Assembly: GCA_009602725.1 (NCBI GenBank)
Contig: WELB01000004.1
Location: forward strand, 62,001 to 92,148
From: Spirogloea muscicola
Lineage: Eukaryota
Length of the DNA stretch: 30,148 nt
Direction: 5' to 3'
The notes under the pieces: generated by a model
What the model saw: only the letters and a program-made list of their open reading frames with translations
Told to the model about the DNA's origin: nothing
Database searches by the model: none
Program-made: the position numbers and the translations under genes
Part shown: positions 24,132 to 30,148 of the stretch, piece after piece
Position numbering within the stretch: the first letter of the stretch is position 1
How the letters are laid out: each line of letters begins with the position of its first letter

Positions 24132-24342
24132 TGAGGGGAGGAAGAGCAACCCCGCTGCGCAAGCTAGAGGCTGCTGCAAGGGCGCGACCAGCCTGGCGAT
24201 GCAAAGCAATCGCCTGGGACCGCTGTAGGCACATAGATAAACGCATTCGGTAGCAGGACACAAGACCCAAAGTCACCGAGCCACCGCGAAGGGCTGCACC
24301 CTGGCCCCGGCGCCGCTGGTCAGCTTGCGAGGCCAGCAGCCG

Positions 24343-24393
24343 AAACCCTAAACCGGCTCAGCGGAGGCCTTCAACCTCCAAACCCAACCCTAA
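24343..24393 (+). promoter_or_regulatory. Telo-box elements upstream of DUS1
   Basis: AAACCCTAA at 24343-24351 and AACCCTAA at 24386-24393. Telo-boxes are known promoter/5'UTR elements of plant translation-related genes. Confidence 0.6.
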
Positions 24394-24422
24394 AGAGGGT
24401 GCGACTGCAAAGCACCTGTCCC

Positions 24423-24453
<31 letters not shown>

Positions 24454-24479
24454 CGCTGCCTGCGGCGCCGCAGCCCGCG

Positions 24480-24480
24480 N

Positions 24481-24530
<50 letters not shown>
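24480..24530. other. N plus poly-A run, probable assembly artefact in DUS1 exon 1
   Basis: Single N followed by 50 A next to a (GGC)n tract, interrupting a coding 5' end. Confidence 0.8.
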
Positions 24531-24531
<1 letters not shown>

Positions 24532-26520
24532 CCGCGGGCGACGGCGGGGCCGCGCGGGAGCGCCGCGCGGCGGCGGCGTGGGAGCACTTCCGGCGGCTGG
24601 GGTCGCCGGCGTGGCACGTGGCGCCCATGGTGGACCAGTCGGAGCTGCCGTTCCGGGTGCTGTGCCGCCGCCACGGCGCGCACGCCGCCTACACGCCCAT
24701 GCTCCACTCCCGCCTCTTCGCCAACGACGCCAAGTACCGCCGCGTCGAGTTCTCCACCTGCCCCGTGAGCCCCTAGCCCCATGGCTCGTCTTTCCCAGCT
24801 GCCGGCTTCGCTTATAGAGGCCTCCAGACGGGCTCCTGAGTCGTGCTTTGACTTCGCTACCAGCGGCCAGCGGCCACAGAGCGGTCTCTGTCTCAGAGTA
24901 CCTTGTTCGTTTGCCAGGCTGCCCATTCAAGCCTTGGTCGATGGTACATGACACCGTCATGGCTGCTCTCTCCGGCAACCGCCTCGTTTGGTCACTGCGG
25001 CCAGAGTGACCAAGTCTGACTCTCCACGCGGTGCTGGTCCTTGTGCAGGAGGATCGGCCGCTGTTTGTGCAGTTCTGCGCCAACGATCCGCAGACGCTGC
25101 TGGCTGCAGCCAAGCACGTCGAGAACGACTGCGACTACATTGACATCAATCTTGGGTATGTTGATATTCTATGGCCTTTCCCTGAGGGACGTGTATTTTG
25201 TGCCAGCAAAGGCTACTATAGCAGCAGAAATAGTACAAGGTGATCAGACCAGAAGCAAGGGAGAGCCTAAGCAATGGGCAGGGTGAGGCTCGTCACGTGT
25301 GACAGACACCTACTCGTAGCGGCCATCCAGGCATGCAGCTGAAGATCTTCTGTCCTGCATGTCACTCTGAAATCTCCACGCTTGACAAGGGTTCTTGCAC
25401 CTTCTGCCGCAGGTGCCCACAAAGGATTGCCAAGCGGGGCTACTACGGCGCGTTCCTGATGGACAACATGCCCCTCGTCAGGTCGCTGGTGGAAACCTTG
25501 GCAGCGGGCGTGAGCACGCCCGTCTCCTGCAAGATCCGCCTCTTCCCCCAGCTCGAGGACACAATCGCCTACGCCAAGATGCTGGAGGACGCGGGGTGCT
25601 CACTGCTGGCTGTGCATGGCCGGACGCGGGACCAGAAGTGCGGGCGAGCCGTGAGGGCCGACTGGCCGGCAATCCGCGCTGTGCGGCAGGCCGTGTCCAT
25701 CCCCGTGCTCGCCAACGGCAATGTGCGGTGGCTGGAGGATGCAGTCGAGTGCATGCGCTTCACAGGCGCGCAGGGCGTGATGTCTGCGGAGTCGCTCCTA
25801 AGCAATCCAGCACTCTTCGCAGGACAACGCATGCCTGCCGAGAGCGGCAGCAGCATCGAGAGCGTGCTTCTGCAGGAAGGCCGGGATACACGGCCAGGGA
25901 CCCCTTGTGAGGCCTCTGCAGCCTCGGCGGCTGCAGCTGAGACGCGGGTGCTCGACGGTGAGCCCTGCAAAGACCAGAAGGCTGATGTCTCAGCAGCGGT
26001 CGAGGTGGTCGCAAGTCAAGTTGAAGGAGGTGAGCACGAGCTGGATGGCAGTGAAAGGAACGGCAGCGGAGCTGGCGAGGCTGCTCCTGACCAGCTGTCG
26101 CTGATGGCGGAGTACCTGGACCTGTGCGACGCCTATCCCGTGCCTATGCGCATGATTCGCGCGCATGTCCACAAGCTCCTAGGTTCGTGGTTCCGTGTGC
26201 ACACGGATCTGCGTGAGCGGCTGAACCGGGAGCATAAGCCGTTGCTGCCCTGGCTGCACTCGATCGTGGTGGAGATTCGCGAGAGAAACTCCAGAGATCC
26301 ATCGTTGAGGCCCTTAAGCGAGAAAATGCCGGGCAGCAGTGCCGCGCTGGGGACTTTGGGCACCGTCGAGCACCCTGCAGCAACTCCCTGCCCCAAGGGG
26401 ACCCAGACGGACGCCAGACCGCAACAGTCATTGGAGTTTCCTTCAAAGGAAGGGCTCATCTGTGGGGACGTGCTTGGCAGCAGCAGTGCGTCAGCTGCAG
26501 CAATCACAACAGTTTCTTAG
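24531..26520 (+). CDS. DUS1: tRNA-dihydrouridine synthase DUS1-like. Exons <24531-24764, 25049-25155, 25413-26520; start hidden in the N/poly-A gap
   Basis: [103 protein letters not shown]. Confidence 0.95.
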
Positions 26521-26879
26521 CGTACTTATGCTCCAAGACAAGTTCAAATTATTACAATCTCGAATTGGAGAGTCTACAGCACATTCACTCAATATGCAAG
26601 TCGTGATACATACACCTTTCGGTCACTCCTGCTCAGCTCCTTGCCTTGCACCAGTTCATCGGACTGAAAAAGGTATGCACGTATTACACATGGCCTGGCA
26701 GAGGTGCCATCTCTTGAAGCGCAGCTTAATGATATAAGTTTAACAAAGATGTCATCAAAATGGGGGCCCCTTTGCCCAAGAATCAAGAAGAAGCCATGCT
26801 TGTGGCTTGAAAAGCAAATAATCACAGGTGCCAAAGCAAGCCGATATTCTAATCAGCTGGTCTTTGGAGCTAGATTGCT

Positions 26880-29800
26880 TCAAGAAGTTGCAGCCAAGAG
26901 GATCCCAGAAACAAGGAGGCCAGTGAGAGAGGCTACTGCCGCGCTTGGTAGGCGACCTCCAGTGGATGGAGGGGGAGGCGCAGTTGGTGCTGAGGCCGGA
27001 GGTGAACCAGCACTAGGAGGGCTTGAGGGTGCTGCAGCAGGCCCTGCAGCAGGCCCCGCAACTGGCACTGGTGCGGCAATGGGGACTGGAGCTGGTGGCG
27101 GCGGCCCCCCTGGGGAGGTGAATGGCGCGCCTGCCGGCGCATTCGAGGGCCCATTTGATGGTGCTGCAGCAGGGCTGGCTGGCAGCGGAGTGCCTCTGAT
27201 GACCACTTTCTGGCCTGCGTTCAGCACCGCGGCAGGAGGACTTGCACTGATGAACAGGCTCGATAGGAAAGACCGCTTTGCAGCATTGAAATAGCCGACA
27301 GTTACATAGCAGTTTCATGGGGTCGTGAGGGGAATGCTACAAGTTCCTTGAAGTGAGTATCAGATAAGGTCATGAGCGACTGGTTGATACCTTCTATGCA
27401 ATGGATGGGAAGTCCAGGAGGACCTTCACTGCAGGCAATGTACTGAGCTTCCAGTGTAACATTGATGATGGTGCCCGACATGAGCCCATTGGTCTCCACT
27501 GCCAGCTTGGTGGCGCCCGTGAAGTTGCATGTCTGGTATGCTACGACGTTTGGCAGCCTCCATACGTTGTGGCAGCAGGAATACTGCAGGCCTGTGCGCA
27601 CATTATGATTAGAGACATGGTTATCAGCGTGATGTTGCCTGATGGCAAGCAGACTCATGCTGGAGGCACTGCTTTCTGAAGGCCCTAGGCTACGGCTCCT
27701 GTCTAACCGTCCTAGGACAGGCTTCCTTCTCCTGACTAGGGACAGAAAAGCAGCAGTCTCACCAACTTGGTCGCCATCGTAGAGCGTTGTAACTTCACTC
27801 CAGCGCGTGTAATTAAGGCTGCCGTCATTCCACCAGAGCGGCCAGTAGCCGCTGGCGATGTAAGGGGGTGGCGGCACAGCCAGGCTGGCTTGCCCCAGCC
27901 CTGCTTGAATGACAACCTTCATCCCTGCAGCAACAAGAAGGTGTCACTATGAGGTTGTTAAGGTCCATTGACAGCAGTAGTACCTCTGAAGCATGTCAAG
28001 CTGCAGGGGGAGCGTACATGGCTTTTGAAGCCAGTGGCCAAGTCACATACCCTGCATGCAGTGTGGCCCAACTGGGCACCCGTAGTACTTGGGCGAACTT
28101 GTGACGGGCACCAGGAAGCCGTGGCCCCTGCCATGAGTCTCATTGGCCAGGCTGACAGAGTGGTTGAAGTTGCATATATCATATGCTTTTCGATCGGGAA
28201 ACTGCATCACTTCATGAAAGGCCAGATATTTGAAGGCTGCACACAGAACGCAGGCCGACCGTCAAATCAACAAGTTACGGAGAGCTCAGACTATCCCATA
28301 GGGCTGGGCTGCTAGTATTCAAGCTTGGGGCTTCAGTGAAAGACAAGGCTCTGCCCTGGCTCCTACAGGGTGTGCCACCTGCACATTGTGGAGCATCACG
28401 TGCAAGTGCAGAAGAAGCTGGACTATGATGAGGCAGCGCAAAGAGACAGGAGCTCCAACGTGAATGAGCAAGGCTCCTCACCAACAATGTCGGTGGTTGT
28501 GAGGGGCGTACTGAGCGCCCACTGCGTGTAATTGGGGCCGCCGGAAACCCACCCTTGCGGTCCTCCGATAGTGAGGATCGAACCCTTGTTTCCCGGTGCC
28601 ACTGTGGACGGTGCACTCAGCGTGATTGTGTCGGTGGCCGCGACCACCAACTTCTGGCCTGTTTGTGCCAAAAAAGCGAGGTATGTTTAGCTTTTCGTGA
28701 CTTACTTCATGTGTCCCCAGTAACAATATCACTTACTTTGCTGGCAGAACGCGCAATTAGAGACTTTCACTTGATACTGTCGCAAGTCGAGCAAGGTGGC
28801 CCATGGGACTTGGCAGAGGTGCAGCCTCACCCTCGATACAGTGGATGGGTATGCCCGGGGGGCCCTCGATGCAGGCAATGTACTGTGGCGCAGCAGTGAC
28901 CTTGATGGTGACGCCTGATCGCGTCCCATTGGGCTCGCCGGCGAGCTTCGCAGCGCCCGTGAAGTTGCACGTCTGGAAGGCCTGCTCGCTGACCAGCCTG
29001 TACACAGTGTGGCAGCACGAGTACTGCAGGCCTGCACAACAAGTACGCAGAGCAGGTGGCGGGAAATGCGTGAGCAAAAGCACTCACACGTGCGCCCTGC
29101 CTGCCATACTGTCGGCGGCTTGCATCAGAGCAGGCCGTATGGGTTGCAGCTCGCGTGCTCACCAACACTGTCGCCAACGCGGAGGTCGTGCTCGGCGGCC
29201 CACTGGCTGTAGTCGAGGGCGCCGTCGGCCCACTCCAGCGGGTAGTAGCCCTGAGCTTCGGCGGGCGGCGGGGGCGACTCCGGAGTCGCTGCGTTGCCCA
29301 GCCCGGCCTGGATGATGACCTTCATGCCTGCAAGAGGCGGGCCCACGCTGCATATCTGACTGGAGGCAGTCTGCGCCCTCGATGCGAGCTGCGCTTTGAG
29401 CTGCTGAGCTGCAGAGTGGGCCGCGGCGATGCGGACGCAGAGACGTGCATGTCGTGGCGCTCACCCAAGATGCAGTGGGGCCTGACGGGGCAGGCATAGT
29501 ACGCGGGCTTCCTCGTGACGCGCACGACGAAGCCCTCGCTGCCGCCGTCCTCCACGCCGGCCAGCAGCTCGGAGCCGTTGAAGTTGCAAGCCTCCCAGTA
29601 GCTGCGGTTGGCCATGCGCGACACCTGGTGGCTGCCGATGTACCGGAAGGCTGCGCACGGCAGGAGAGTGAAGGCGCGTTGTGGGCGTAAGGAGATTGGA
29701 GCTCCGAGCTCGAGCGCTCGAGCCAGGACGTGTGGAGTGTGTATCGAGTGATGGAGGGCCTGAGTGGCCAAGTACGAAGGCAAGCACATTGACAGCTGTA

Positions 29801-30054
29801 CACCGCCTGCTGCTAAGCCGACCCGCTCAGTAACCACGAGAGTCAGCACGTAGAGGTCGTTAAGTCACATTGGAGATTGTCTTAAGGGGGACCAGCAGCG
29901 AGGCCGGCGACGGGCCGACGAGGCGCGCACCGACGGAGTCGCGCGTGGTGAGCGGCGTGGCGGCCGCCCAGGCGGTGTAGTTGGCGGCGCCCTCGGCCCA
30001 GCCGCCGGGGCCGCCGACCTGGACCACGGCGGCGCGCGCGGCGGCAGCTGCGGC

Positions 30055-30058
<4 letters not shown>
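26880..30058 (-). CDS. Four-domain phytocyanin (blue copper) with AGP-like stalk and GPI-signal-like C-terminus; start lost in poly-A. Exons >30058-29931, 29650-29465, 29327-29163, 29031-28831, 28658-28482, 28236-28051, 27924-27763, 27591-27391, 27214-26880
   Basis: Four copies of the plastocyanin-like pattern W..(N/D)Y..W....D.V.(F/L).Y...H.V...C...C-xn-HC..G(M/Q)K, followed by AP/SP/PA-rich AGP motifs and a hydrophobic tail (SAAVASLTGLLVSGILLAATS*). All 8 introns are phase-1 GT-AG. Confidence 0.93.

Positions 30059-30148
<90 letters not shown>
30059..30148. other. Terminal poly-A run, probable assembly artefact masking the phytocyanin start
   Basis: About 90 A replacing the expected signal-peptide coding sequence, adjacent to a GC-rich exon. 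Confidence 0.75.

Follow-up and report, generated by a model that had tools for sequence, protein, structure and literature searches.

The window analysed here, a stretch of 30,148 nucleotides, carries a Spirogloea muscicola phytocyanin gene with nine exons on the minus strand, whose single open frame comprises 579 codons. The encoded protein consists of a Met-type domain (D1), a Gln-type domain (D2), a second Met-type domain (D3) and a second Gln-type domain (D4), followed by a tail rich in Pro, Ala, Ser and Thr. The features referred to below are:

26879..30057, minus strand: four-domain phytocyanin gene (open frame, GT-AG introns, identity to SM000004S14907, spliced contigs)
30057-29931 (5' end open), 29650-29465, 29327-29163, 29031-28831 and 28658-28482, minus strand: exons 1-5
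28236-28051, 27924-27763, 27591-27391 and 27214-26879, minus strand: exons 6-9
29308..30027, minus strand: D1, Met-type (uclacyanin-like) domain, with His at 29630-29628, Cys-x4-His at 29492-29475 and Met at 29325-29323
28639..29250, minus strand: D2, Gln-type (stellacyanin-like) domain with Cys-Cys-His and Cys-x9-His, axial Gln at 28656-28654
29250-29221, minus strand: GY(Y/W)PL.W.DG start of D2
29009..29017, minus strand: Cys-Cys-His of D2, with Cys-Cys at 29017-29012 and the first His ligand at 29011-29009
28841..28873, minus strand: Cys-x9-His ligand loop of D2, Pro/Gly-rich
27905..28578, minus strand: D3, Met-type domain, with His at 28216-28214, Cys-x4-His at 28078-28061 and Met at 27922-27920
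27195..27850, minus strand: D4, Gln-type domain, a duplicate of D2 (63% identical), axial Gln at 27212-27210
27850-27821, minus strand: GY(Y/W)PL.W.DG start of D4
27569..27577, minus strand: Cys-Cys-His of D4, with Cys-Cys at 27577-27572 and the first His ligand at 27571-27569
27401..27433, minus strand: Cys-x9-His ligand loop of D4
26879..27194, minus strand: arabinogalactan-protein-like tail of 104 residues, stop codon included (composition, hydropathy)
30059..30148, no strand assigned: run of 90 A reaching the window end, at the expected start of the signal peptide

All eight introns are GT-AG and interrupt the frame in phase 1. Residues 55-579 of the gene product are identical to the EukProt Spirogloea muscicola protein SM000004S14907 (P0001), a public model that begins at an internal Met and includes neither exon 1 nor D1's first His. 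A further protein of the same cluster, SM000007S20928 (P0002; 601 residues, 95% identical), carries a hydrophobic N-terminus and shares the exon 1 junction, and from its sequence we read it as a homeolog of the window gene. The signal-peptide-like hydrophobic start is complete in this homeolog (hydropathy); in the window that part runs into the run of 90 A, which is probably assembly filler, and two further A/T runs in the window adjoin an N. Introns 2-6 are bridged by spliced contigs of run X1 (two of the bridges carry variant letters at the joint) and introns 7 and 8 have matching loose ends in contigs of the same run, which is RNA by guess and not on record as such; among the joints listed for these contigs there was none for intron 1.

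The preliminary description of this locus had drawn attention to two Cys directly before the first His ligand and a Cys-x9-His loop in D2 and D4, as opposed to the Cys-x4-His of D1 and D3, and we found every one of these motifs, on the minus strand. By sequence, the four ligand residues (His, Cys, His and Met or Gln) are present in each of the four domains, as is the structural Cys pair of phytocyanins. The 16 Cys of the protein are distributed as 3, 5, 3 and 5 over D1-D4, with no spare partner cysteines elsewhere in the protein for the Cys-Cys pairs. Since D1 and D3 are 51% identical and D2 and D4 63% (65/103), against 36-41% for the cross pairs, the protein arose by duplication of a two-domain unit of one Met-type and one Gln-type domain. 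In the tail, 71% of residues are Pro, Ala, Ser or Thr; it contains 26 AP/PA/SP/TP/GP/VP dipeptides and finishes in an uncharged hydrophobic stretch that is likely a GPI-anchor signal. The four-domain phytocyanin is thus likely to be secreted and membrane-anchored, judging from its predicted ends.

Membership of the phytocyanin family was consistent across methods. The Pfam family PF02298 (Cu_bind_like) matched P0001 with 70.3 bits over three stretches and D2 alone with 26.6 bits (cut-off 20.8), and the five matches of a PDB sequence search were phytocyanins without exception. A model of D2 built on an 88-row alignment reached a pLDDT of 93.8 and, in ten-residue blocks, 92 at the cysteine pair and 96-97 along the long loop; full-length P0002 folded without an alignment gave a pLDDT of 33, so the usable model is that of D2. 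Mavicyanin was its best fold match (Z 14.9, 1.6 Å over 96 residues), followed by umecyanin, stellacyanin, cucumber basic protein and plantacyanin; the top six rows were phytocyanins, Foldseek concurred, and mononuclear phytocyanins scored Z 12.4-14.9 against 6.8 or less for other cupredoxins. Copper nitrite reductase was a weak fold match (E 7e-3, TM 0.47), and the generic phytocyanin clusters returned by the ESM Atlas at 0.86-0.87 serve as leads only. We confidently assign to D2, as modelled, the phytocyanin-type cupredoxin beta-sandwich.

Within the family, D2 and D4 fit the stellacyanin definition (Gln as axial ligand plus a glycoprotein-like domain) given in the accessible part of PMC4499708, and D1 and D3, by sequence, fit that of uclacyanins (Met as axial ligand plus a glycoprotein-like domain). 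The known stellacyanins (cucumber stellacyanin 1JER, mavicyanin 1WS7/1WS8, umecyanin 1X9R) share with D2 and D4 the His/Cys/His/Gln ligands, the structural Cys pair and the glycoprotein-like tail, and their folds superimpose on the D2 model with Z 13.8-14.9 and rmsd 1.6-1.9 Å. They differ in that D2 and D4 put Cys-Cys ahead of the first His and have Tyr-x3-His in place of Tyr-x4-His and Cys-x9-His in place of Cys-x4-His, and in that the Gln-type domains here alternate with Met-type domains in one chain. The x4 spacing of the solved stellacyanins, seen in 4/4 solved phytocyanins aligned, is common but lies outside the stellacyanin definition as worded in the accessible part of PMC4499708. Likewise, D1 and D3 share His/Cys/His/Met and Cys-x4-His with uclacyanins and plantacyanins (cucumber basic protein 2CBP, spinach plantacyanin 1F56), and the Pro-rich tail follows the uclacyanin layout, yet here these domains alternate with Gln-type Cys-Cys domains. 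On its sequence the whole protein is probably a multi-domain phytocyanin-like chimeric arabinogalactan protein (AGP) by the definitions in the accessible part of PMC4499708. It shares with the chimeric AGPs presented there repeated plastocyanin-like domains and a conserved phase-1 intron within the domain, and would also share a signal peptide (predicted from the hydrophobic start of the homeolog), an AGP-like region and a GPI signal, both of which fit by composition and hydropathy. Four domains are found here, whereas two or three are given in that part of PMC4499708; the cotton protein P0013, among our matches, has four repeats.

Relatives were gathered by a cluster-representative search with P0002, which gave 512 matches, 150 of which were examined. 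Among these, four further proteins carry Cys-Cys-His, namely P0005 (Netrium digitus), P0006 (Coleochaete scutata), P0008 (Logan) and P0010 (JGI/IMG), each with two domains. A plain domain precedes the Cys-Cys domain in P0006, P0008 and P0010, the same order as in Spirogloea; in Netrium P0005 it is the first domain that carries Cys-Cys, and the other has neither the ligands nor the pair. The first-ligand context could be parsed in 221 cases, a count that, like the loop counts below, includes near-identical cluster members: two Cys precede the His in eight (four Spirogloea domains and P0005, P0006, P0008 and P0010) and exactly one Cys in none. The motif is thereby conserved in homologues, where its two Cys come together, next to an intact ligand set, every time. 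The six distinct Cys-Cys domains, four of them Gln-type and two Met-type, all retain His/Cys/His/(Gln or Met) along with the two structural Cys and have five Cys each; therefore, the pair is extra and displaces nothing. P0005 and P0008, with Cys totals of 8 and 10, have one pair each and no further spare cysteines. In P0006 and P0010 a second extra Cys pair is present in the neighbouring domain, so that inter-domain bonds are possible in those two proteins.

The family so delimited is a small sample of five independent proteins among the 150 of 512 matches examined, and land-plant domains in this sample lack Cys-Cys-His. A profile of the six Cys-Cys rows recovered the seeds alone from longer proteins (7996 candidates scored) and, from shorter proteins, one domain of unrelated type (P0170) lacking the pair. 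Metagenome contigs yielded 0 relatives among 438 pattern matches, and 50/50 matches to a Cys-Cys-His DNA pattern had no phytocyanin context; these last two collections are poor in algal genes and therefore say little about the range of the pair. Only the two Spirogloea copies showed YSCCH...C.EGPPG.P.HC in full.

The ligand loop behaves differently. It has four residues in 174/193 parsed loops, and 15/189 loops from outside Spirogloea have another length. Nine-residue loops number eight: four from Spirogloea, one each from Psilotum, Diphasiastrum and Selaginella, and one from another protein. Loops of 11 residues are present in Nymphaea and in the Coleochaete protein's plain domain. Outside Spirogloea the 9-11-residue loops (vascular plants, Coleochaete) thus sit in domains without the Cys-Cys pair, and the six distinct Cys-Cys domains have loops of 9, 9, 2, 4, 4 and 4 residues. 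Therefore, pair and loop are independent traits, and the best reading of the nine-residue loop is as a Spirogloea feature, separate from the pair and under selection. The earlier proposal of a single blue-copper subtype uniting the pair, the nine-residue loop and an altered domain start finds no support, given the Cys-Cys domains with loops of 2, 4, 4 and 4, two of which are Met-type, and the long loops lacking the pair. The altered start itself is present in D2 (outside the 27391..29031 region first described) and in D4, but it is not distinctive. We rejected GY.PL.W as a special trait: 37/70 aligned domains do not pass a crude VG[GD]..W test, some of them just through truncated ends, such starts being common among the matches, and the family Trp is retained in 69/70.

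It had also been argued that conservation of the motifs between otherwise diverged copies indicates selection. Selection on D2 and D4 is shown by a dS of about 1.28 between them against a dN of 0.30, and by the EGPPG codons, 5/5 of which differ, through synonymous changes only. The argument does not extend to the motif as set apart from its surroundings: the two copies are 63% identical overall, and identity is 10/12 at motif positions and 55/91 elsewhere, a difference that is not significant (Fisher p=0.11). Residue differences to the homeolog number 0/103 in D2, 3/103 in D4, 6/101 in D1 and 9/101 in D3. Read variants are 3 non-synonymous and 13 synonymous in D2 and D4 together against 9 and 8 in D1 and D3, a difference that falls short of significance (p=0.07; the D1 list is incomplete).

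For the tree, 165 deduplicated domains were reduced to 70 aligned and 55 used (12 rows of the five Cys-Cys proteins and, of the remainder, the 43 with the best scores), after the Cys-Cys and loop columns had been taken out of the alignment. All 12 rows of the five proteins fell in one 15-row group together with two Closterium-type domains and P0020 (support 83/93, not starred, bootstrap not fully settled), and the copper-free second domain of P0005 was sister to D2 and D4 (support 95/81). The six Cys-Cys domains by themselves were rejected as a clade (p-AU 0.027 for the whole domain, 0.038 for the C-half), while a single origin was not rejected once copper-free domains were added (p-AU 0.17-0.21), a grouping chosen after inspection of the tree; with the copper-free Netrium domain the value was 0.17. 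It is plausible that the pair arose once and was subsequently lost where copper binding was lost. The C-half tree gave no support to exon swapping as the cause of the non-monophyly.

What might the pair do? The reading that we favour, with somewhat better than even confidence, is that in D2 and D4 it forms a structural vicinal disulfide ring that shapes the surface next to what is predicted to be an ordinary type 1 copper site. Since the cysteines are extra, always paired, in a domain predicted to be secreted and without a spare partner, they are most likely bonded to each other. In this proposal the protein would be glycosylated and GPI-anchored, with four mononuclear type 1 sites, each domain binding one copper and transferring electrons one at a time at the cell surface. 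Potentials would be somewhat lower in the Gln domains than in the Met domains; cucumber stellacyanin and cucumber basic protein are listed at 265 and 306 mV, respectively, in the accessible part of PMC11881046. In the oxidising secretory pathway the pair would close into an eight-membered disulfide ring, which would make the short Tyr-x3-His turn more rigid and bring sulfur to the surface patch above the copper, the presumed docking site of the partner. The side chains at the positions His-1 and His-2 face this docking patch in cupredoxin structures. In our alignments the His-1 position is occupied by Met in cucumber basic protein and umecyanin. Vicinal disulfides are assigned roles in ligand binding, structure stabilisation or switching in the accessible part of PMC12102755; known examples such as that of the arabinofuranosidase 1WD4 share with D2 and D4 the adjacent Cys-Cys, the secreted protein and the functional surface, although the bond here is predicted.

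The nine-residue loop, for its part, would reshape the same surface patch and adjust potential or partner choice modestly, creating no new kind of site. According to the accessible part of PMC7480511, swapping natural loops shifted the potential by as much as about 50-100 mV and, in one scaffold, altered the reorganisation energy by a factor of up to 2.3; the parts of PMC7480511 and PMC6115626 available to us describe modest potential shifts, a reorganisation energy that can rise and a site that can open to outside ligands. We accordingly expect an effect of the loop that is measurable but not transforming. The accessible part of PMC4059628 gives Cys-to-His spacings of 2-4 for most cupredoxins, 6 for AcoP and 7-8 for nitrite reductase, so that nine residues exceeds the cases listed there. 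A long spacing is thus shared with AcoP and the type 1 site of copper nitrite reductase, which differ from D2 and D4, where nine residues, an axial Gln and a phytocyanin fold come together. A suspected likeness of the loop itself to that of nitrite reductase was dropped, as a PDB sequence search with the loop peptide gave no nitrite reductase and only chance ribonuclease matches.

Alternatively, the pair could be redox-active or bind Cu(I) transiently, coupling the two-electron chemistry of the thiols to the one-electron transfer of the copper, acting as a redox switch or loading copper extracellularly. It immediately precedes a ligand and was seen solely alongside intact ligand sets, and the close copper-free relative, the second domain of P0005, has lost it. 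Methanol dehydrogenase, with a vicinal disulfide beside its PQQ cofactor, offers a precedent for a redox-active pair. Vicinal disulfides can also act as conformational switches, as stated in the accessible part of PMC12102755. Yet the proteins have signal-peptide-like starts and an extracellular reductant would have to be postulated, and the flanking genes give no hint of a redox partner. We hold this reading to be unlikely. Equally unlikely, on the sequences at hand, is its fullest form, in which streptophyte algae would have retained cell-surface cupredoxins of a class with a redox-active vicinal dithiol/disulfide wired straight to type 1 copper, a two- to one-electron converter within a 100-residue domain; if it were true, Spirogloea would join such a converter, in an alternating Met/Gln four-copper chain, with a Cys-to-His loop that exceeds all those listed in PMC4059628 for characterised type 1 sites.

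The cysteines might instead bond to another domain or chain (D2 to D4, a homodimer, or a wall or membrane partner) and so tie copper sites together. The Spirogloea protein has two pairs that could be cross-linked, and the extra pairs in the neighbouring domains of P0006 and P0010 would suit such bonds; the single pairs of P0005 and P0008, proteins without other spare cysteines, do not, and a copper face covered in this way would presumably block docking. We therefore think such cross-links quite improbable.

It may also be that pair and loop alike are variation that is tolerated and serves no special role, small residues fitting before the His and loop insertions being frequent, as the 15/189 loops of other lengths and the motif's unexceptional conservation (p=0.11) would suggest. 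For the loop this may well be near the truth, notwithstanding the synonymous-only differences in its five EGPPG codons. As an account of the whole it is very improbable: Cys-Cys at one given site is expected with a frequency of about 0.0007 from background Cys frequency, yet the pair is found in five proteins whose C-halves are only 28-44% identical, and never as a single Cys. Least probable of all is that pair and long loop together make an altered or second metal site, CuA-like and binuclear or with Zn or Cu beside the type 1 copper. The extra metal site suggested at first has found no support. Although both features adjoin ligands and CuA loops begin with Cys-x-Glu as do those of D2 and D4, the nine loop residues of D2 and D4 include no second, bridging Cys of the CuA type, in each of the other four proteins the pair goes with a loop of 2-4 residues, and mononuclear phytocyanins are far ahead in the structure search.

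The structural disulfide ring remains our preferred reading of the pair, and the feature of D2 and D4 is real and selected, in domains that belong to a known family, the phytocyanins, with an independent long loop added here. Literature searches, which covered few subscription journals, turned up no vicinal disulfide beside type 1 copper, and targeted searches of the same coverage no description of a Cys-Cys-His phytocyanin motif. For Spirogloea phytocyanins there was no relevant match, and the accessible part of PMC7612518 makes no mention of phytocyanins. The Cys-Cys-His phytocyanin variant of streptophyte algae is thus apparently undescribed.

Second-sphere residues and the ligand loop's length are the main handles on the potential and electron-transfer rate of type 1 copper, and have mostly been studied by engineering. 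D2 is a small natural domain that combines a nine-residue loop with a ligand-adjacent cysteine pair and therefore allows a direct test of both, with its homologues, in which the pair occurs with short loops and long loops occur without the pair, as natural controls. Our findings should be of interest chiefly to copper-protein chemists and to those working on algal cell surfaces. What phytocyanins do biologically is poorly known, a matter that the present finding does not settle. As the motif occurs in the two algal classes nearest to land plants and is absent from the land-plant domains sampled, it may identify a lineage of redox proteins at the cell surface that predates land plants.

In the public model of the phytocyanin gene, SM000004S14907, translation begins at an internal Met. 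The 5' part of the gene (window 29615-30057, minus strand), with exon 1, the signal peptide and the first His ligand of domain D1, is therefore missing from it, whereas the model of the homeolog (SM000007S20928) has all three. Within intron 1, the stretch 29713-29831 was matched by many contigs of run X1, a sequencing run presumed to be of RNA, that continue into unlike sequence, with a depth of 2179 and 13 loose ends at 29733; this stretch is probably a dispersed repeat. A/T homopolymer runs were also found within GC-rich first exons, two of the three adjoining an N, and these are probably assembly artefacts. The runs and the neighbouring coding features are as follows.

2170-2180, strand not given, A/T homopolymer run
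11590-12093, minus strand, DUF179/AlgH-like exon, by sequence match
17988-18485, plus strand, class I fructose-bisphosphate aldolase exon, by sequence match
24237-26520, plus strand, dihydrouridine synthase gene (Pfam Dus)
24480-24530, strand not given, A/T homopolymer run
30059-30148, strand not given, A/T homopolymer run

The dihydrouridine synthase gene is convergent with the phytocyanin gene, at a stop-to-stop distance of ~360 bases. Elsewhere in the window lie candidate patatin-like (near 1630-2334), pectin methylesterase-like (near 9688-10416), PRCC-like (near 12856-14088) and protein disulfide isomerase-like (near 21558-22190) sequences; Pfam gave zero matches for the pieces tested from these stretches.

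Ligand loops (the Cys-to-His spacing) vary in other phytocyanins. The first domain of P0005 (Netrium digitus) combines Cys-Cys-His and Gln with a Cys-x2-His loop, the shortest spacing observed (2 of 193 parsed loops among the matches listed). The first domain of P0006 (Coleochaete scutata), itself lacking the cysteine pair, carries a Pro-rich loop of 11 residues whose end is similar to the Spirogloea loop, possibly a related insertion. Loops of 9 or 11 residues also occur in P0032, P0047, P0083 and P0063 (phytocyanins of Psilotum, Diphasiastrum, Selaginella and Nymphaea), the first two of which cluster together in the domain tree (support 100/99).

In addition to their Cys-Cys-His pair, the two-domain homologues P0006 (residues 38-44) and P0010 (residues 35-41) carry Cys-Gly-Trp-x-x-Gly-Cys around the conserved Trp of the plain first domain, a candidate second extra disulfide in this algal group. 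Loss of copper ligands was seen: none is left in the second domain of P0005, and two ligands, the first His and the Cys, are lost in the checked domains of P0009, P0011, P0012, P0022, P0024 and P0064, three-domain phytocyanin-like proteins of which two are named as Closterium. On the domains checked, these six proteins are an algal copper-free group.
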